Part shown: piece by piece, positions 18,550-27,845 of the stretch
Layout of the letters: every line of letters begins with the position of its first letter
Position numbering within the stretch: the first letter of the stretch is position 1
Virus record (IMG/VR): IMGVR_UViG_2802429221_000019
Location: 1 to 27,845 of that record
Reading direction: 5' to 3' (one strand)
DNA: 27,845 nucleotides
DNA from: a virus
Taxonomy: Duplodnaviria > Heunggongvirae > Uroviricota > Caudoviricetes
The notes under the pieces: model-generated
The model's database searches: none
What the model saw: the letters and a program-made list of their open reading frames with translations, nothing else
Told to the model about the DNA's origin: nothing
Made by a program: the position numbers and the translations under genes

Positions 18550-19602
18550 TTAGCTGTCGGCGAACTTCAGGCCAGTGACCATCGCGCACTTGCCATAGTC
18601 TTCAACGACATAAGCGTCATTGATGGACTGGTAGGTGGCGATGCGGTTGTATTCCGGCTCGTCTTTCATCAGGCGACGCATTGTTCCTTTCTGCCAGTAA
18701 ATTGACAGGTTGTTGAACGAGGTGATAAGCATCGTTGAATCCGGGAAGAACGGCGCAAGGAATACATCCAGCCCGCCAATGGCGCGCGATGACAGGATGA
18801 GCTGTCCGGCAAGTAATTCCGCATTGGGATTCTGGCCGCTGATGCTGTTCAGCACGGGCAGACGCAGCGAGTTAAACAGGTTGCGCCCCATAATCACCAC
18901 GAGGTCGTCAGCTTCCTTGTGCCATTCATCCAGCAGGGATGAGCGCGCGTCCTGTACCAGAGCATCAGCGTTCGCATACTTACCCGCGTGCGCCACGGTG
19001 TTGTCCATGTTGCGGGAGGTCAGCGTCACGTCATTCATTACGCGCTCGCTGGCGTCGGTTCTGATGTGCTCCAGCCATCCCACGTTAACGTCCTGAAGCA
19101 GCTTGTTAGTGCTGAAGTTGGACTCATCTGCGTGAGACGTGCCGTTGAAACCGATCATGATGCGGTCAAGCGCCACCTGCCGGGCAATCTGTGTGCTGAC
19201 GCGGGACTGAAAATCAGGGTGTGCCGCCCAGGCATCAAGCTGCGGATACGAAATAAACGTGTCGTAGTTCACCTGTTCGCACTGATATTTGCGGTTTTTC
19301 AGATCAACCACGTTATTCGGGTTACGGCGTTTTGTGCCGTCATAACTGGTATTCGTGCGCGCAATCGGCCCGGTGGTGTCCAGGAGGATTTTTTCGCCTT
19401 TCTGGTCGGTCACACCGAACACGTTAATTTTTTTTGTAAATTCGGTGCTTTCCTTTACTGCGTTTTCAAAACGCTGCTGCACCGAGGGTTCCACGGTAAA
19501 TCGCGATACCAGTGCAGATACCGGGATGTTGTTAAGCGACGCCTGCTGCGCCATATAGCAACCCAGCTTGTTGCGGGTAATATCTGACATCACCAGATTC
19601 AT
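18550..19602 (-). CDS. N: major capsid protein
   Basis: 350 aa; conserved segments FTVEPSV, GFNG, VGWL, LSIYWQ, YVVEDY as in P2 gpN. Confidence 0.9.
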   Translation of the reverse strand: MNLVMSDITRNKLGCYMAQQASLNNIPVSALVSRFTVEPSVQQRFENAVKESTEFTKKINVFGVTDQKGEKILLDTTGPIARTNTSYDGTKRRNPNNVVDLKNRKYQCEQVNYDTFISYPQLDAWAAHPDFQSRVSTQIARQVALDRIMIGFNGTSHADESNFSTNKLLQDVNVGWLEHIRTDASERVMNDVTLTSRNMDNTVAHAGKYANADALVQDARSSLLDEWHKEADDLVVIMGRNLFNSLRLPVLNSISGQNPNAELLAGQLILSSRAIGGLDVFLAPFFPDSTMLITSFNNLSIYWQKGTMRRLMKDEPEYNRIATYQSINDAYVVEDYGKCAMVTGLKFADS

Positions 19603-19625: not shown

Positions 19626-20462
19626 TCAGAAGTCAGCCAGTTGATCGGAGGCTGCGCCCGTTGCGGTGAACCGGTTCTGCGGATCGCCGTCCTGCGTGCG
19701 CAGTTTTTCCTTCAGTGCTGTCAGCTCTGTGGTCAGTGAAGTGATTTTCTGGCTGTCCTGCTGATGGCGGGTTTCCAGCGCATTAAAACGGTCGATAATG
19801 TCGGCCTGTGACGTTGCGACGCCTTCCACCGCTTCCTGAATGCGGGAAAAACTGGCGTCATCCGCTTTGCGGCCACGGCCAATAATCCCCATTACGCGGT
19901 TAAACCACTGGGTGCCTTCTTCCTGGCGTTGTTCTGCCATTTCGATGATTTCAGACTCGATGGCTTCGGAGATAAGCGGTGCTTCACCCTGGACACTGTT
20001 GAACGTCATCACCGCCTGACGTTGCTGTGCCGTGAATTTCAGGCGCTCAGTGCCCAGACTTGCCGGGGTGTCGGTCATCGCCAGCCCGACCAGATAGGCG
20101 CGCCCGTTAACGGAGAACTGCGGGTGCAGTTCGATACTGGAATAGATTTTCTTGCCGTCAGCGACAAGCTGCTTCATGCGCTCGGTCGGTTCGATTTCTG
20201 CATACAGCGCAGTACGTCCGGCCAGCGGACCTTCCGTAATGTCTTCCGTACTCAGTGCGGTGACATCGCCCATTGCGGAAAATTCGCTTGACGGGCATGG
20301 CGAGAGATAGTGCTCAACGTTCACGCGGGCAGCGTAAACATCCGGGTCGAAGTTCTCAGCAGCTTCACGCAGATGCACCGGACTGATTTCGCGGCCATCA
20401 ACAGTTGATCCGGAGACAGCCACGCGAAACTTTTTGCGTGATGTCTTTTTTTCATTAGCCAT
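19626..20462 (-). CDS. O: capsid scaffolding protein
   Basis: start chosen at ATG 20462 (MANEKKTSRKKFRVAVSG) with SD AGAGGGG; ORF-track frame extends to 20495. Confidence 0.82.
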   Translation of the reverse strand: MANEKKTSRKKFRVAVSGSTVDGREISPVHLREAAENFDPDVYAARVNVEHYLSPCPSSEFSAMGDVTALSTEDITEGPLAGRTALYAEIEPTERMKQLVADGKKIYSSIELHPQFSVNGRAYLVGLAMTDTPASLGTERLKFTAQQRQAVMTFNSVQGEAPLISEAIESEIIEMAEQRQEEGTQWFNRVMGIIGRGRKADDASFSRIQEAVEGVATSQADIIDRFNALETRHQQDSQKITSLTTELTALKEKLRTQDGDPQNRFTATGAASDQLADF

Positions 20463-20616
20463 AGTTTTTGCCCCTCTGACTGGTTCTTCAGTCATGATGG
20501 CAAAGCGTAACAGGCTGATACAAAGGGCTTTTGTTGTAAGAAAATGGCCAGAACAGGGGGTTAAGGAGAACGGTTTCGCGCGCGGGTAATCTTCCTGTAA
20601 TTACTCAGGGGGAGCA

Positions 20617-22368
20617 ATGATTCAGGACGCTTTTGTGCGCCAGCGTGCGCGACAACTTTACTGGCAGGGTTATCCGCCCGCTGAAATATCACGTCTGATG
20701 GGAATAAACCCGAACACGATTTATGCGTGGAAAAAACGCGACCAGTGGGATGAAACGCCACCCGTGCAGCGTGTCACGCAGTCCATCGATGCGCGCCTCA
20801 TCCAGCTTACTGAAAAACAGAATAAAACAGGCGGTGACTTTAAGGAAATAGACCTGCTGACCCGGCAGCTTAAAAAACTGCATGATGGCCAGCCGGATGC
20901 GACGGCCACAGGAAAGAAAGGCCGGGCGAAAAAGCTTAAAAATCATTTCACGCCGGAACAGATTGCCGCACTGCGGGAAAAAATCATCAGCAGGCTGGAG
21001 TGGCATCAGCGGGGCTGGTTTGACTCCCTGACCCTTTGCAGGGAAGCCGGGATACGTAACAGGATGATCCTGAAATCCCGACAGATTGGGGCGACCTGGT
21101 ATTTTGCACAGGAAGCACTGCTGATGGCGCTGCGTGACGATGTGGCGCAACCTTACCAGCGTAACCAGATTTTTTTGTCTGCGTCGCGTCGTCAGGCGTT
21201 CCAGTTTAAAAGCATTATTCAGAAGGCTGCATCTGAAGTTGATGTGGAGCTGAAAGGGGGCGATAAAATCATCCTCTCCAACGGCGCAGAACTGCATTTT
21301 CTCGGTACTTCTGCTGCGACGGCACAGTCCTACACAGGCAATTTTTATTTTGATGAATTTTTCTGGGTCAGTCGCTTTGCTGAACTGCGCAAGGTGGCTG
21401 GCGCTATGGCAACCCTCAGCGGGCTGCGACGCACCTACTTCTCCACGCCATCAACCGAAACGCACGAGGCATACGTCTACTGGAACGGCGACCGCTGGAA
21501 CGAGAAAAAGGCCGCGCATAAACGCCAGCGTTTTTCTGTGGACTGGAAAACGCTGCATAACGGGCTTATCTGCCCCGACCGGACGTGGCGGCAAATTGTC
21601 ACGCTGGAAGATGTGGTTAATCACGGCTGGAAACACACCGATATTGATGAAATTCGTGATGAAAACACCGAAGACGAGTTCCGCAATCTCTATATGTGTG
21701 AGTTTGTCCGCGAAGGGGAATCGGCATTTAACCTGAATATCCTGATTGGCTGCGGCGTTGACGGATACGACGACTGGAAAGACTGGAAACCTTTTGCTCC
21801 CCGCCCGATGGGGAATCGTCCGGTATGGATTGGGTATGACGCAAACGGCAGCAGTGGAAACGGCGACAGTGGCGCGGTGTCCGTGGTGGTTCCTCCGGCT
21901 GTTCCTGGTGGCCGTTTTCGAACGGTGGAGACGCGACGCGTTCAGGGGCTGGAGTTTGAAGAACAGGCCAGAGTCATTGAAGAGTTCACGTGTCGCTACA
22001 ACGTGGAACACATCGGCATTGATGTGACGGGCGGGAACGGGGAGGCTGTTTATCAGATAGTGAAACGGTTTTTCCCTGCCGCTATTCCGTACACCTTCAC
22101 GCTGTCATCAAAACGGTCGCTGGTACTGAAAATGCTGCAAATAATGCGTGCCGGGCGGTGGGAATACGATCGCGCCGAACGCGAGCTGGTCGCGGCCTTT
22201 AACGCCGTGCGTAAGGTGAAAACACCGGGCGGCTTTATCACTTACGAAACGGACCGCGCGAGGGGGATCAGCCACGGCGACCTTGCGTGGGCAACCATGC
22301 TTGCTGTCATTAACGAACCAATTGGCGGCGAAGGAGAAAACGAGCGTTTCACGGTTATGGAGTTCTGA
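20617..22368 (+). CDS. P: terminase large (ATPase) subunit
   Basis: 583 aa; SD GGGGGAG upstream; divergent from O as in P2. Confidence 0.9.
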   Translation: MIQDAFVRQRARQLYWQGYPPAEISRLMGINPNTIYAWKKRDQWDETPPVQRVTQSIDARLIQLTEKQNKTGGDFKEIDLLTRQLKKLHDGQPDATATGKKGRAKKLKNHFTPEQIAALREKIISRLEWHQRGWFDSLTLCREAGIRNRMILKSRQIGATWYFAQEALLMALRDDVAQPYQRNQIFLSASRRQAFQFKSIIQKAASEVDVELKGGDKIILSNGAELHFLGTSAATAQSYTGNFYFDEFFWVSRFAELRKVAGAMATLSGLRRTYFSTPSTETHEAYVYWNGDRWNEKKAAHKRQRFSVDWKTLHNGLICPDRTWRQIVTLEDVVNHGWKHTDIDEIRDENTEDEFRNLYMCEFVREGESAFNLNILIGCGVDGYDDWKDWKPFAPRPMGNRPVWIGYDANGSSGNGDSGAVSVVVPPAVPGGRFRTVETRRVQGLEFEEQARVIEEFTCRYNVEHIGIDVTGGNGEAVYQIVKRFFPAAIPYTFTLSSKRSLVLKMLQIMRAGRWEYDRAERELVAAFNAVRKVKTPGGFITYETDRARGISHGDLAWATMLAVINEPIGGEGENERFTVMEF

Positions 22369-23414
22369 TGAGCAGAAAAAATAAAAAAGTGCGCATGAGT
22401 TCACGCATTGATCTCGCTGATGCGCTCAGGAAAGAATCGTCGCTCAGTGCATTCACATTTGATGGTCCTTACCGCCTGACCGGGCATGACCTGCTGGACA
22501 ATATGTACTGTGCTGATAACGGGCGATGGTATGAAACCCCGGTGGACTGGTACGGTCTGGCAAGAGCTGCCCGGCAAACGTCCTGGCATCAGTCTGCGCT
22601 TTACTTTAAGCGTAATGTATTGCTCGGCTGCTATATTCCGCATCCGCTGCTTTCCCGGCAGGATTTCTCGGCGCTGGCGCTGGACTGGTTTGTGTTCGGT
22701 AACGCATTCCTTGAGCTTCGAAGCAATATGCTCGGCGAACCGCTTAAATTACGGCACGCCCTGGCGAAATACATGCGACGCGGAAGCGATCTTGAATCAT
22801 GGTGGTATGTGCAGGATGGCAAGGACGCGTTTCAGTTTCGCCCTGGCAAAGTGTGCCACCTGATGAACCCGGATATTAACCAGGAAATCTACGGCATGCC
22901 GGAATATCTTGGCGCATTACTCTCGGCCAGCCTGTCTCATTCGGCGGACATGTTCAGAAAACTGTACTACGACAATGGATCCCACGCCGGGTGCATCATC
23001 TACATCGGTGCAGCGCAGGTAAACCGCGAAAGCATGGACTCCCTGAAGGAAACGCTACAGGGTGCGCGTGGTGGTGGTGCATTTAAAAACGTGCTCATTC
23101 ACGCGCCAAACGGGGGCAAAGAAGGTGTGCAAATTTTGCCGTTCCAGCAGATCACCGCAAAGGATGAGTTCATGAATGTTAAGGCGGCATCCCGTGATGA
23201 TGTGCTGGCTGCGCACCGCGTTCCGCCGCAACTGATGGGGGCGATGCCGGGCGAAAAAAGTGCGTTTGGTGATGTGGAGAAGGCAGCGCGGGTTTACGCA
23301 ATTAACGAGCTGATGCCCGTCATGGAGGCCATGAAGCACATCAATGACTGGCTTGGCGAAGAGGTGATCCGTTTTAATTCTTATGCTCTTCTTGATGAAA
23401 AAACAGCCCCGTGA
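22368..23414 (+). CDS. Q: portal protein
   Basis: 348 aa; ATG overlaps P stop (TGATG); P2 gpQ-like size and position. Confidence 0.9.
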   Translation: MSRKNKKVRMSSRIDLADALRKESSLSAFTFDGPYRLTGHDLLDNMYCADNGRWYETPVDWYGLARAARQTSWHQSALYFKRNVLLGCYIPHPLLSRQDFSALALDWFVFGNAFLELRSNMLGEPLKLRHALAKYMRRGSDLESWWYVQDGKDAFQFRPGKVCHLMNPDINQEIYGMPEYLGALLSASLSHSADMFRKLYYDNGSHAGCIIYIGAAQVNRESMDSLKETLQGARGGGAFKNVLIHAPNGGKEGVQILPFQQITAKDEFMNVKAASRDDVLAAHRVPPQLMGAMPGEKSAFGDVEKAARVYAINELMPVMEAMKHINDWLGEEVIRFNSYALLDEKTAP

Positions 23415-23430
23415 TGGGGCTGTCCTTTTT
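23403..23430. terminator. bidirectional intrinsic terminator between Q and the convergent 174-aa gene
   Basis: stem ACAGCCCC / GGGGCTGT with 5-nt loop, overlapping the Q stop, followed by CCTTTTT; the complementary strand has a T-run on the other side. Confidence 0.65.
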
Positions 23431-23953
23431 ACCAGAGTTGAACCATTTTCTGTGTGCCGTCAGGCTTGAGATTATCAATTTCAGAGAGAACGTAATATTG
23501 AATGGCTTCACAGACGGTGGTGTATGGTGAATTACCTTCTTTAAGTGGCACGATATTATTATTAACGCGAACCTGTATTTCATCGTTATACATTGCGATC
23601 GAAAGAGGAGTATGCACGAAGGCGACTTCGCCAGGTGTGTCGTCAACCACTGTCTCAATGCTGAAAATCAGTTTTCGCTCATCATTGCCGCCCCTTGCTT
23701 TGGGGGTAGCGGCAGGAATCTGAGATAAAGGCATTCTGCGAAACCCTTCAGCCGTTTCCAGTCCGCATGAAACGTAATGCTGGCGATTACCGTCGCTATC
23801 AGTCCATGTCTGTGATGGCAGCTCCAGAGAGATTTCATAAGCATCAACAATTCCCTGGGCAATGCGTACAAGCGGGGTCAGGTCTTCATTGCGGCGAAAA
23901 CTCTCCTTTACCTGATCTCGTTTTTCTCGTAACTGCTTGTAATTAATGACCAT
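23429..23953 (-). CDS. hypothetical protein, 174 aa, no recognised domain
   Basis: ORF-track frame 23429..23992; start chosen at ATG 23953 (MVINYKQLREKR...) with SD GGAGG 7 nt upstream; ends at the bidirectional terminator; GC content looks lower than the phage core. Confidence 0.5.
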   Translation of the reverse strand: MVINYKQLREKRDQVKESFRRNEDLTPLVRIAQGIVDAYEISLELPSQTWTDSDGNRQHYVSCGLETAEGFRRMPLSQIPAATPKARGGNDERKLIFSIETVVDDTPGEVAFVHTPLSIAMYNDEIQVRVNNNIVPLKEGNSPYTTVCEAIQYYVLSEIDNLKPDGTQKMVQLW

Positions 23954-24358
23954 AAGACAGCCTCCATTGATTTCTTTGCTCGTATTTTGCACTTATGAAG
24001 TGTGGTCGGCAAGGTGCCGCATCACTGACGCGCTTCGCTTGTCTGCTGCTTCGCCGGGGCATAAAAAATTTATGCCCCGACTCTCCAGCTCCCGTATCAA
24101 TCAGATAATTTCACGACGTCTTCCAACTTATCGCCATCATCGACGGCCAGACTCTTACGCAATCCCATCGAGCTGATAGCATGTTCTCGCCGCCTCAGTG
24201 CGATTTTGACGGCCTTACCTTTCACCCCATCAAATCAGAACCCCTTACGTATTTTTCACGCTCAGCGTGAGCGATACAGCCATTCTGTTGTGTCGCTGCG
24301 ACATCGTTCAGGGAATGCTATTTACCCCCTGAAACGCGGGCTGTTCCCCCGTCACCTG

Positions 24359-24382
24359 CGCGCAGAAAAAGCGCGTTTTTTT
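24359..24382 (+). terminator. terminator-like hairpin with U-tract (plus-strand sense) in noncoding region
   Basis: CGCGC - AGAAAAA - GCGCG followed by T7. Confidence 0.35.
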
Positions 24383-24450
24383 GTGCACGCACGGATCCTT
24401 GACGGATCCAGCCGCCATGCGGGCCGGAAGGGCAAAAAGTCGTTCAAAAA

Positions 24451-24480
24451 AATTGTGCAAATTTGTGCACTATTGTGCAA
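24451..24480. repeat. three tandem 10-bp repeats (ATTGTGCAAA / TTTGTGCACT / ATTGTGCAAA)
   Basis: TTGTGCA core at 24453, 24463 and 24473, exactly one helical turn apart, at the boundary of the AT-rich island. Confidence 0.6.
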
Positions 24481-24718
24481 ACCGAACGGAGTGCTTATTT
24501 ATAGAAAAATTGAGCCTATGTATACGACGTTGCTTATAAATACATCCCTGACTGTTATGTGAAAATATGCAAAGAAAATTACATGCTATGGAGATGAGAG
24601 TTATAACGACCTTTTCTACTTATTTGTAAAAGAGGTCGTTATGTAAAAGTTAAATTATTTTTTACTCTTGATATGTGTAAAAAATATAGCTTTGATGTTT
24701 ATATCCTATTAGAATACA

Positions 24719-26416
24719 TTATTTATCCTCTTTAATGATTTTGTTATAGTCAAAATCCCAAATTTTTCTGTCAATGCCGTTTGTTGGTGTAACCCGGTAG
24801 AATAAGGATCGTAATCCATTGTAAAAATACTGGAGAGATTTCTGATTTTCTGGTTTGTCTAACCAGTTTCTTGTAATCATTCTAAAGAATTCAATATGCT
24901 GATTGAATATTTTCTTATTTAATTTTCTTCTTAAACCGGATGTAGACTCATGGTTGTCTTTTCTTTTCTGAATTTCAGTTTCAATTGATTGTAATTGAGG
25001 ACGTATCTTGAGTAAGTATAACTCTTTCGAAAAACCATTGTTAATTATATCCTGATTTTCCCAGAAGGAAGAGTCGTCGGTATTATAAAGGTGCTCACAA
25101 TGCTCAAATATCAATTGTTCTGGAGCTTTTTCACCCGGCAGTGATATAATTCCTCTCTGATCCTCAGGGCTGTGATCTCCATCAAGAATACAAATTGATT
25201 TTAACGAGGTTTCCTTAAGATGAGAATCATTAAAAATAGTTTTTAAATTGTCTGCACCAATGAAACAATCAATTAAGTGAAATGAATTACTAACTATAGC
25301 AAAATTTGGATATTTGCTTATCCAATAACCAAGTATTTCATTAAATAAAAAGCGAGCTTCTTCATCTTCCGTGAAAACTGGTATCTTGTTCCTTGTGTAT
25401 ATCTCATCCTTTGTTTGTGTTTTCAGATACATTGTTATTTTTAATATATCAGGATTATCCAAAAGCAGAGCCTTTGTAATATTGTTAATTAGATAGGCAA
25501 CATGATATTTTTTATGAAAAGCATATTCTAGCAATGTCAGACTGTGCGTTGTGAAAAATACTTGAATCTTATAATCTTTTGCGTATTGATAAATTTTATC
25601 TAATAATCTTATCTGTAAAGAAGGATGTAAAGTGGCATCAAATTCATCTATTAACAGAATGCTTTCTTTTTGATCAGTGGATTGAATAAGTGATTCAAAA
25701 TAATACCTAAGGCTAACTAATGCCTTGATTATAACGAATATATTGTCTTCCCCGGATGATATGGTATTAGAATCAATTGCTGGGTTATCGGTATCAAATA
25801 ATGGGCCAGCTTTAAAATCTCCGATATTGTTTGATTCTATATTTATAATATTAATGCCCAAAAGTTCATTATATATTTTCGATATATAACCAACATACTC
25901 TTCTGGTAGGTTTAACGGAATTTTTGTAAGGGCGTCGTCTTTAGTTTCACCAATTGGGAATAGTCGCGATAATCCAAGATATAAAACTGGTTTAGCTGGA
26001 AGTGATTGTTTTTCTTTTCCGCGTGGGTATACTGGTTTGATAGCATACCGTTGCGCTTCGTCTGGATTTTTTGAGTTGTGCTTTCTGAAGTCTAGTGTGC
26101 TATGATCCAAATAGTTAATAGAAAATAACACACCTTTTGTTCCCTCTGCCGGATCGGTGTAATTTTTTGATTCCCTAACAATTGCTTCCATTTTGGGGTT
26201 GGCTATTTTGTTTATAGATTTTATAACTCTAACACAATTACTATTTGAATAATTTTGTGATCGAGATGGTGGCATTTGGAAACCATTGCTAATTAAATGA
26301 AGCAATGTTGTCTTACATGTCCCATTGGTTCCTGATATTATATTGATGTCTTCATTGAATGAGAAGTCAATATCTATCAGTTTCTTAAATTTTTTAAAAC
26401 TAATTTCTTTAATCAT
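24719..26416 (-). CDS. OLD-family-like ABC ATPase with C-terminal Toprim-like nuclease domain
   Basis: 565 aa; Walker A GTNGTCKTT (aa 29-37), signature-like ISSGE (aa ~219-223), Walker B ILLIDE (aa 253-258), H-loop FFTTHS (aa ~287-292); C-terminal PVFTEDEE (Glu ~350) and ILDGDHS (DxD 412-414) fit a Toprim fold; SD AAGGA 8 nt upstream; very AT-rich. Confidence 0.7.
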   Translation of the reverse strand: MIKEISFKKFKKLIDIDFSFNEDINIISGTNGTCKTTLLHLISNGFQMPPSRSQNYSNSNCVRVIKSINKIANPKMEAIVRESKNYTDPAEGTKGVLFSINYLDHSTLDFRKHNSKNPDEAQRYAIKPVYPRGKEKQSLPAKPVLYLGLSRLFPIGETKDDALTKIPLNLPEEYVGYISKIYNELLGINIINIESNNIGDFKAGPLFDTDNPAIDSNTISSGEDNIFVIIKALVSLRYYFESLIQSTDQKESILLIDEFDATLHPSLQIRLLDKIYQYAKDYKIQVFFTTHSLTLLEYAFHKKYHVAYLINNITKALLLDNPDILKITMYLKTQTKDEIYTRNKIPVFTEDEEARFLFNEILGYWISKYPNFAIVSNSFHLIDCFIGADNLKTIFNDSHLKETSLKSICILDGDHSPEDQRGIISLPGEKAPEQLIFEHCEHLYNTDDSSFWENQDIINNGFSKELYLLKIRPQLQSIETEIQKRKDNHESTSGLRRKLNKKIFNQHIEFFRMITRNWLDKPENQKSLQYFYNGLRSLFYRVTPTNGIDRKIWDFDYNKIIKEDK

Positions 26417-26433
26417 CTATATCATCCTTAAAT

Positions 26434-27279
26434 TTAAATGTCAGGGATTTTTATACCATGATTATAAATGATAATTTCTAGACCTTTTTTCTTATCTTGT
26501 GCAGTATAATTAAGCGTATAATCAGTCATATTGAATTCATGATATATGCTTTTTATTTCAGGCACATTGTCATAAGACACAACCCAAGGTAGTTGAATTT
26601 CCCGTAGTGTATTAGCGATTTTTACATGATCATCATGTTTATAAAAATTTCTATATAACTCTGCTCCTTTAACATAATAAGGTGGATCAAGATATATTAG
26701 ACTATTTTGGGGTAGCAATGCTTTTTGGTGTAGCAGAAAATCTACAGCATCAAAATTCGATACGTAAATTTTCTCCTTATATGCCCCAATTAGTTCAATC
26801 CTTTTAATTAACTCTTTTTTGTTGAATCGTGCATCTAACTTCCATGGTCCTTTTTGTTCTTTCCCTCCAATAACGCCAGCCTTAAGTATTCCTGAACGGT
26901 TTGTTCTATTTAAAAAGAAAGTAGATAATGCGACTTCAAGCATACTATATTTATCATTGTTTAGGAGTATCTCCTTTTGAGTATGCCAATTTTCAATAGT
27001 CACAGGAACTTCATCAATCATTTCACATAACAGATCGTTATGATTAACCACTGCAAACCAAAAAGAATAAAGGGCAGGATCAATATCATTTATGAAGATA
27101 TTTTCAACAAGACCGTTAAGGAGCAAACCTAATGCAACACCGGCTCCACCTGCATAAGGTTCAGCATAACATCCACCAATGAGATCATTGTTGCGGAGTA
27201 TTTGTTCAATATGTGGCAAGAATTTTGCCTTACCTCCCGGATAACGAAGAGGGGTTCTAAAATGAGAAGGCTTTGTCAT
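26434..27279 (-). CDS. Dam-family (D12 class) N6-adenine DNA methyltransferase
   Basis: 281 aa; motifs YPGGK (aa 13-17), EPYAGGAGV (aa 40-48, SAM-binding FxGxG type), DPPY (aa 198-201); 17-nt gap to the downstream OLD-like gene. Confidence 0.85.
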   Translation of the reverse strand: MTKPSHFRTPLRYPGGKAKFLPHIEQILRNNDLIGGCYAEPYAGGAGVALGLLLNGLVENIFINDIDPALYSFWFAVVNHNDLLCEMIDEVPVTIENWHTQKEILLNNDKYSMLEVALSTFFLNRTNRSGILKAGVIGGKEQKGPWKLDARFNKKELIKRIELIGAYKEKIYVSNFDAVDFLLHQKALLPQNSLIYLDPPYYVKGAELYRNFYKHDDHVKIANTLREIQLPWVVSYDNVPEIKSIYHEFNMTDYTLNYTAQDKKKGLEIIIYNHGIKIPDI

Positions 27280-27367
27280 CCACGATTTTCTCAGTAAAAA
27301 ATAAACATAATCTTAACATGGCACTTGAGTTTTCCCGATAAAAAACATCGTCGCCGTCCATAGATAT

Positions 27368-27383
27368 TTGCATAGTTATGCAA
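27368..27383. promoter_or_regulatory. perfect palindrome TTGCATA-GT-TATGCAA, candidate operator in the leader of the methyltransferase operon
   Basis: 16-bp dyad located between the predicted promoter and the methyltransferase start. Confidence 0.35.
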
Positions 27384-27402
27384 AAAATCCAGTTTTCAAT
27401 GA

Positions 27403-27432
27403 ATTAAGGGGAATTATATCAATTGCATTCTA
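27403..27432 (-). promoter_or_regulatory. candidate extended -10 promoter for the methyltransferase/OLD-like operon
   Basis: minus-strand TGATATAAT (27411-27403) with weak -35 TTGTGT (27432-27427, 18-nt spacer). Confidence 0.35.
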
Positions 27433-27464
27433 TTCAACACAATATTCGGTTAGCGATTCACATC

Positions 27465-27845
27465 TCATCCCTCATGATGGAAAAGGCATATCCAACTTTG
27501 TAATTGTTTTTTCTCATCATCATTTTGATTACTAAAGTGCTGTTTGCCTCTCTTTTGGAGCAAAGTAGCCTTGCGGCGGGCGCGTTCAGTGGTTTCATTG
27601 ATTCTTTGTGCGTGCTCTGCGTCACGGATGGCGCGCAGCATGTCAGAAAGCACGGTAACGGGAGTTTTCATGGTGTTCTGGTCCTGCTGAATTGTGGATG
27701 CCAGGCGTGCGGCGGCTTCGGGGTCTGATGCCCCGAGCTGCTCCAGATAGCTGGAGACCGGGTTATGGCGGATCTCCGTGCTGCTTACGCCGTGATTACG
27801 GCTCAGGCGCTGCCAGAGCTGCGTGATTCGGCTGTCCGGGCGGGT
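27465..27845 (-). CDS. phage early-region protein, C-terminal part (5' end outside window)
   Basis: frame is open from the window edge (hand translation ...TRPDSRITQLWQRLSRNHGVSSTEIRH...) to the stop at 27465; function not recognised; last ~30 codons are AT-rich. Confidence 0.55.
   Translation of the reverse strand, partial: TRPDSRITQLWQRLSRNHGVSSTEIRHNPVSSYLEQLGASDPEAAARLASTIQQDQNTMKTPVTVLSDMLRAIRDAEHAQRINETTERARRKATLLQKRGKQHFSNQNDDEKKQLQSWICLFHHEG

Follow-up and report, generated by a model that had tools for sequence, protein, structure and literature searches.

At the end of the genome considered here, the morons of P2-family phages are phage-exclusion genes (PMC9122126; PMC9519451); old and tin exclude other phages at this end of the P2 genome, and fun does so elsewhere in P2. 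The first moron to be described, gene 15 of HK97, lies between the tail chaperone and tape measure genes (PMC3594210). The gpA-gpQ interval of P2-like prophages is among the most productive sources of new anti-phage systems, and Rousset et al. (PMC9122126) took all of the sequence between gpA and gpQ. Since surveys of this kind extract everything between these two genes, the gene that we examine here has been counted in many different "systems." It encodes a protein of 174 amino acids (aa) and lies at positions 23429-23953 (minus strand) of a stretch of 27,845 nucleotides (nt), IMG/VR record IMGVR_UViG_2802429221_000019, the whole of which is referred to as the window. Our results show that the gene is dispensable for the phage and independent of the methyltransferase/ATPase operon beside it. 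It very probably forms an optional mobile cassette inserted in a P2-family prophage of the P88 type (Xuanwuvirus-like), at the 3' end of Q, the portal gene. Overall, it may be a single-gene moron whose product, made in the lysogen, blocks a competing phage or satellite; this is the best explanation that we can offer, and we hold it tentatively.

Databases and a published hotspot table already list the product of the gene as a hypothetical protein, and morons are a well-known kind of element. What is new is the recognition of a portal-linked module outside the hotspot, its independence of the cargo, the wider family with its multiple insertion slots, and a confident structural model that has no known fold neighbour. 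Nothing in the analysis points to an unusual mechanism.

The module at the 3' end of the portal gene

The gene, a member of family phrog_5091, runs on the minus strand from an ATG at 23953 to a TAA at 23431-23429. The first-pass annotation had credited it with a good Shine-Dalgarno sequence, and one can be read from the sequence: GGAGG (23965-23961, minus strand), 7 nt 5' of the ATG, with its GGAG unchanged in an alignment of the Escherichia coli and Salmonella loci. The gene is real and under purifying selection. Between E. coli alleles, the nonsynonymous rate (dN) is 0.015 and the synonymous rate (dS) is 0.23, giving a dN/dS ratio of 0.06; for two Salmonella alleles the ratio is 0.19. Because homologues span 97% to 23% identity and dN/dS is low, the open reading frame (ORF) is more than a product of chance. 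An identical copy of the protein is present on 778 contigs, and RefSeq calls the identical 525-base-pair (bp) coding sequence in related genomes. A 187-aa version, starting from an in-frame GTG 13 codons upstream, was rejected, as it lacks a Shine-Dalgarno sequence whereas the ATG has GGAGG and is the start used by RefSeq.

The gene is part of a variable module at 23372-24027 (both strands), which consists of an alternative version of the last ~13 portal codons, a terminator, the gene, its Shine-Dalgarno sequence and a candidate promoter. The module, of ~650 bp and with a GC content of 46% over 23395-24027, is missing in P88-type phages, and so is extra DNA relative to close relatives, as in the Juhala/Hendrix definition of a moron summarised in PMC3594210. 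When 23300-24500 was compared with phage genomes by blastn under its "distant" setting, the whole stretch was found in four phages (vB_EcoM-705R2, vB_EcoM-569R5, PhiR44_2 and a P88-like ST131 phage). Only the flanks were matched in P88, 520873, 503458, 500465-2, Chuche, Shae_phiSM and P88_4B11; those of P88, P88_4B11, 500465-2, 520873, 503458 and Chuche align at 92-94%. Alignments show that identity to P88 is near perfect up to ~23371, drops over the last ~13 portal codons and is gone from ~23397, so that the C-terminal ends of the two portals differ (FNSYALLDEKTAP in the window and FNPYALLDTQPTS in P88, each followed by the stop). Identity returns at CTGACGCG (24024-24027), which in P88 is the portal stop codon and the next bases. 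The portals linked to the gene in Salmonella end alike, in ...YALLEEK or ...YALLEENKTGL before the stop, and therefore the gene travels together with a particular portal 3' end. Just at the right of the module, GCCGCATCACTGA (24012-24027) resembles the last codons and stop of a P88-type portal (GCCCACATCCTGA). This resemblance may be a relic, in which case the history would be one of insertion of the module into a P88-type portal 3' end, not of its deletion from one.

The first-pass annotation had stated that P2 has no gene at this position and had proposed accessory cargo. The P2 record (NC_001895) bears out the first point: cosL lies at 1-19, the terminator tQ at 160-181 and Q at 187-1221, with no gene between Q and cos. 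The second is borne out by an insertion/deletion polymorphism, the gene being absent from P2, P88, P88_4B11 and 500465-2, among others. Among 5426 complete E. coli genomes, the gene occurs at 403 places in 397 genomes (~7%), and the conserved backbone next to it occurs at 1309 places in 1143; 403 of the 1309 junctions (~31%) thus bear the gene, which is dispensable for the phage. A conserved structural or packaging protein of this phage lineage among the homologues had been named as the finding that would speak against cargo. None emerged, and the gene does not have the status of a core P2-family structural or packaging gene, given its variable presence and the absence of any structural Pfam or PHROG match. 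A 96.6%-identical protein is encoded on two E. coli records filed as plasmids, NZ_MK439959.1 (48515-49036) and CP054248.1 (523380-523901), of 228 kb and 542 kb, respectively.

The portal gene (22368-23414, plus strand) is convergent with the 174-aa gene, and between them lies a hairpin, ACAGCCCCGTGATGGGGCTGT (23403-23423, both strands), with a T-run each way and the portal TGA (23412-23414) in its loop. It was found by a plus-strand scan and by a separate minus-strand scan, in the latter of which it lies 4 nt past the stop of the 174-aa gene. As the T-runs lie on both strands and the portal stop is enclosed, the hairpin should end both convergent genes; the bidirectional terminator of the first-pass annotation is thus confirmed, and the module has the factor-independent terminator of its own that is characteristic of a moron. 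Composition also agrees with what had been claimed. The GC content of the gene (45.9%) is intermediate between that of the portal (53.0%) and the island at 24719-27279 (32.4%), with the terminase at 53.9% and the non-coding backbone at 51.9%; the deviation from portal and backbone is modest, and of the kind expected of a moron.

Beyond the module lies the conserved non-coding backbone (24030-24480, both strands), mostly at 90-95% identity in E. coli and presumed to be the cos/packaging region. The homology of most genomes to the window ends at ~24479, where the variable hotspot starts. The gene is to the left of this boundary and therefore outside the recombining segment; the backbone separates the cassette, on its portal side, from the variable defence hotspot proper.

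Several features of the backbone and its surroundings may be recorded here. A palindrome with an 11-bp stem, CGGGGCATAAA-AAA-TTTATGCCCCG (24055-24079, both strands), has no T-run after it on either strand and closely follows the portal stop in P88-type phages. Rfam gave no match across 22000-27845. The P2/P4 cos 19-mer was absent from the region at up to 3 mismatches, and the P2 cos junction had no BLAST similarity to it. The best orientation-consistent cos candidate, GGGCTGTTCCCCCGTCACC (24338-24356), agrees at 13 of 19 positions with the reverse complement of P2 cos; in P88_4B11, a 5-bp deletion overlaps its left end, and the record of that phage is broken at the equivalent of 24434/24435, without a terminal repeat. 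Three tandem 10-bp units, each ending in TTGTGCA (aaaTTGTGCA aatTTGTGCA ctaTTGTGCA), occupy 24453-24479, at the exact right edge of the conserved backbone; these could form a protein-binding array, for example a terminase or regulator site. The head and packaging cluster of the window is of the P2 family, in reverse orientation to the P2 map, with capsid (18550-19602) and scaffold (19626-20495) genes on the minus strand and the large terminase gene (20617-22368) on the plus strand.

Cargo beside the gene

The first-pass annotation had suggested that the gene might act with the neighbouring operon, and had called for a co-occurrence analysis with the methyltransferase/OLD-like pair across prophages. 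Co-occurrence is not consistent, and many different cargoes adjoin the module. In the window and in TW10598 the cargo is a pair made up of an AAA ATPase and a Dam methylase, whereas in CFIAFB20190157, whose gene is 100% identical to that of the window, it is a helix-turn-helix (HTH) protein with a hypothetical protein and ParM/StbB. A DUF4760 protein, a hypothetical protein and ParM/StbB are found in ST131 EC958, a small hypothetical protein and ParM/StbB in O111:H8, ParM/StbB only in RIVM_C037794, and an HTH/Peptidase_M78 protein or a YafO toxin in Salmonella. The supplementary tables of Rousset et al. agree with this picture. In Table S5, the RefSeq protein WP_000236495 is listed at least 167 times as a "hypothetical" member of a locus; Table S5A has a MethyltransfD12 plus AAA_15/AAA_21 locus (NZ_BGUT01000005) for which no third gene is listed, as well as a DUF4760 locus without the 174-aa protein. 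Moreover, in the window the gene and the operon are 765 bp apart, a gap that includes ~450 bp of conserved backbone with terminator-like hairpins. The variety of cargoes beside the module therefore argues against the gene being a third member of the methyltransferase/ATPase pair; it is independent of this operon, and the claim that it acts with its neighbour is not supported. A role in defence or anti-defence apart from the operon, which the first-pass annotation had also raised, is possible. Recognition that the gene is linked to the portal and not to the cargo should help to clean up guilt-by-association calls in this interval.

The operon itself (24719-26416 and 26434-27279) resembles PD-lambda-5 in part. 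Its methyltransferase matches the PADLOC model PD-Lambda-5_B with an E value of 8.7e-122. The best matches of its 565-aa ATPase are to HEC-04, PtuA, ATPase-Toprim_I-B, AriA and GajA, at ~1e-16. Because the PD-Lambda-5_A model is not among the 25 best matches of this ATPase, the partner of the methyltransferase may differ from that of the described PD-lambda-5.

The protein, its family and its insertion slots

The protein matches phrog_5091 ("unknown function") with an E value of 6.4e-66, residues 1-168 aligning with profile positions 1-164 of 164. Membership names the gene without explaining it, because the family has no assigned function. As the first-pass annotation had found no motif, so our searches of Pfam, NCBIfam and PADLOC gave no significant match, only a sub-threshold one to LYR. 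Word-indexed searches recovered relatives from the Enterobacteriaceae only, down to 60% identity and all labelled "hypothetical." An exhaustive profile search reached much further, to 76 clusters at an E value of 1e-3 or below, mostly of 155-175 aa and with 23-33% identity; 2 genome loci and 10 viral loci were found with a narrower family alignment as the query. All of the 26 aligned relatives match phrog_5091. Neither the family identifier nor the RefSeq accession is mentioned in the main text of any paper, and the sole published listing that we found is the supplementary Table S5 of Rousset et al.

These relatives, each with its own terminator, are spread over four or more different slots in temperate phages that are unrelated to one another. 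In Salmonella, a relative with 60% identity is in the same portal slot, beside different cargo. A second slot, held by 12 loci (L009-L014, L018, L019, L023, L024, L027 and L034), lies between the late antiterminator gene Q, or NinG/HIRAN genes, and the holin/endolysin genes; its occupants belong to Klebsiella and other lambdoid prophages and to phage CharmingMan. In four loci (L020, L026, L028 and L029), the gene lies after the sheath and tube genes, between those for the tail assembly chaperone (phrog_1932) and the tape measure (phrog_2276); L020 was tested directly, and the other three were assigned by matching ORF layout. In L025 the gene follows an antirepressor and precedes a Dit-like tail protein and baseplate hub, and in L022 it precedes a baseplate wedge subunit.

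An intrinsic terminator was present 2-94 nt past the stop in all 19 family cassettes that were scanned, against a background in the same loci and on the same strand of 0.058 such terminators per 100 nt. The 19 cassettes are related and hence not 19 independent events, and they cover several unrelated genomic contexts. Sequence resemblance among the terminators of L019-L029 suggests that the terminator moves with the gene.

The distant homologues at L018-L029 have a conserved in-frame N-terminal extension of 12 codons, ~36-39 nt 5' of the M(T/S)ITY start, which is itself conserved. The extension is of two types, MNxFNCNKGRF and MLIRNNxLMEKG, with an AGGTG ribosome-binding site of its own and synonymous-type variation. 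The internal ATG in these loci also has a site (AAGGAAG/GGAGAA), and two starts are therefore possible. In the P2-type clade of E. coli and Salmonella, the upstream start has been lost.

The 174-aa protein has an isoelectric point of ~5, a net charge of -6 and no hydrophobic segment, and the whole family is mildly acidic. It lacks a signal peptide, any membrane segment and known virulence domains, and shows no recognisable catalytic or DNA-binding signature; the product is probably a soluble, mildly acidic cytoplasmic protein. Two AlphaFold models were made, the first with a mean predicted local distance difference test score of 71 and the second, with a 26-sequence alignment, with a score of 86.2 and a predicted template modelling score of 0.75. 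In the model, two N-terminal helices (5-22 and 26-42) are followed by an antiparallel sheet, whose strands lie between 49 and 135, and helix 145-159 forms the C-terminal element. Conservation is greatest at Y39, S42, L43, W50, G55, Y60, V61, F97, T101, V102 and C148 and in a TV(I/V)DD(S/T)P loop. Comparison of the model with known structures gave no informative fold match, all similarities being far below significance. The weak neighbours include the FP domains of PI31 and Fbxo7, actin-capping protein, Mediator Med17/Med14 modules, the C-terminal domain of TnsE, type III secretion chaperones, polymorphic-toxin immunity proteins, P1 DarA and AcrIIA11. Because most of these are protein-binding scaffolds rather than enzymes and no catalytic signature is recognisable, we infer that the protein would act by binding a partner protein and not by catalysis. 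A single-sequence phmmer search of the PDB also matched de novo designed helical-repeat/cage proteins (E values of 2.8e-7 to 5e-4, residues 124-168). These matches appear spurious, because they are gone when the family profile is used and the model has strands and one helix in that region.

Possible functions and comparison with known systems

We propose that the gene would be transcribed alone from a weak sigma-70 promoter at about 23984-24012, with its transcript ending at the shared hairpin, and that the protein would be made in the lysogen and would bind a protein of a competing phage or satellite, thereby blocking that competitor. A conflict function through stoichiometric binding is suggested by the dispensable, mobile nature of the cassette and by the morons of P2 (old, tin and fun) and HK97, which exclude phages. 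By analogy with these, a lysogen-expressed exclusion factor would be the likeliest single version of such a function, and taken alone it is possible rather than probable. The candidate promoter, TTGCCG-17 nt-CAAAAT (24012-23984, minus strand), is the sole sigma-70-like match upstream of the gene and agrees with the consensus at 8 of 12 positions. Both its CTTGnC block and its CAAAAT block, and the 17-nt spacing between them, are the same in E. coli as in Salmonella loci, while the remaining upstream DNA has diverged and barely aligns; this conservation may be read as a phylogenetic footprint, not as proof.

Several observations weigh against this proposal, and the main weakness of any functional claim is the timing of expression. 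At 8 of 12 positions, the candidate promoter falls below the threshold of both consensus scans, and a consensus-grade promoter is present within 180 nt upstream in only 3 of 20 family loci. In two of these three (L009 and L011), the promoter is more likely a late promoter than one belonging to the cassette, because a terminator-like hairpin comes after it. No transcriptome of a carrier strain was found, and that of the P2-like prophage BTP5 (PMC7067206) is uninformative on this gene. The 174-aa protein has no effector, toxin or membrane domain, and it matches no PADLOC family at an E value of 0.1 or below, PD-lambda-5 components included. Finally, the gene has the same direction as the late genes in its lambdoid and tail-operon contexts. 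Lytic expression may be possible there, which would suit counter-defence or a virion-associated role better than exclusion in the lysogen.

Such a role is the basis of the rival that we rank close behind an exclusion factor, and ahead of host conversion, a structural accessory and operon membership: a lytic-cycle helper, made late or packaged, that would neutralise a host defence or a satellite (P4 or a phage-inducible chromosomal island). We regard it as somewhat doubtful. Where the gene occupies the P2-type slot, it runs antisense to the late P-Q operon, and every cassette ends in a terminator of its own. Ogr-dependent late promoters are expected to have a TGT-N12-ACA dyad, and no such dyad was seen upstream of the gene when the sequence was read by eye. 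Known anti-defence genes are usually found in early regions, and the structural similarities to DarA and AcrIIA11 are, like the others, far below significance.

It is unlikely that the protein is directed at the host, as a lysogenic-conversion factor that alters physiology, stress tolerance or virulence. The same moron slots do carry conversion genes in other phages (stx between Q and S, with lom, bor and sopE at other sites; PMC3594210), the CharmingMan homologue adjoins genes annotated as tellurite-resistance-like and TciB-like, and the gene is common in sampled pathogenic lineages (ST131 EC958, O111, O145 and enterotoxigenic E. coli). However, the spread among lineages may only mirror the abundance of P88-type prophages and the choice of strains for sequencing, and the protein carries none of the secretion, membrane or virulence features noted above as lacking. 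Less likely still is a non-essential accessory of virion structure or assembly, such as a head/portal accessory or decoration protein. The gene adjoins the portal here and lies within tail modules in some relatives, but it is absent from ~69% of otherwise near-identical prophage junctions as well as from P2 and P88, occupies non-equivalent positions in unrelated virion types, and encodes a protein that matches no structural PHROG or Pfam family. Least probable, and largely refuted, is a third component of, or regulator for, the PD-lambda-5-like operon: the operon is adjacent and on the same strand in the window and TW10598 and its methyltransferase matches PD-Lambda-5_B, but the gene also accompanies at least five further types of cargo, or none, the NZ_BGUT01000005 locus has no third gene listed, the 765-bp gap holds conserved backbone and terminator-like sites, and the 174-aa protein lacks a PADLOC match.

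Returning to the exclusion factor and the related counter-defence reading, we suggest, with reserve, that phrog_5091 may be a new family of single-protein conflict factors of undescribed fold, carried as a gene-plus-terminator cassette across at least four unrelated slots in temperate phages of Enterobacterales and acting in phage or satellite exclusion or in counter-defence. A widespread single gene with no known fold neighbour is a cheap candidate for phage-challenge experiments; otherwise, it is an ordinary hypothetical accessory gene.

How far do known systems support such a view? Several distant homologues occupy the lambdoid Q/lysis cargo slot, the site of stx, where they follow a terminator-like hairpin and precede the holin/endolysin genes. 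The window copy differs in that it is carried by a P2-family phage and is convergent with the portal gene, and its product has no similarity to toxins or to other characterised cargo of that slot. The superinfection exclusion gene 15 of HK97 is also a lone gene inserted in a late region, where it has transcription signals of its own, and its slot is also held by relatives of the window gene in the myovirus prophages L020, L026, L028 and L029. However, HK97 gp15, of the YebO family, is a small protein of the inner membrane, whereas the 174-aa protein is soluble, lacks a hydrophobic segment and is unrelated in sequence.

A further comparison is with the lysogenic-conversion genes of P2, located in the gpA-gpQ interval that both Rousset et al. 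and Vassallo et al. have treated as a defence hotspot. Like the 174-aa gene, old, tin and fun(Z) are accessory genes that the phage can do without; their composition deviates, and their presence varies within the P2 family. The 174-aa gene has no sequence or fold similarity to them, lies on the portal side of the 450-bp backbone rather than in the variable segment, and is only mildly low in GC content (46%) when compared with the island (~32%); an exclusion phenotype, established for those genes, is for this one a proposal. Among them, P2 Tin provides the conceptual model for that proposal, as it acts not as an enzyme but by binding a protein of the competitor that it blocks.
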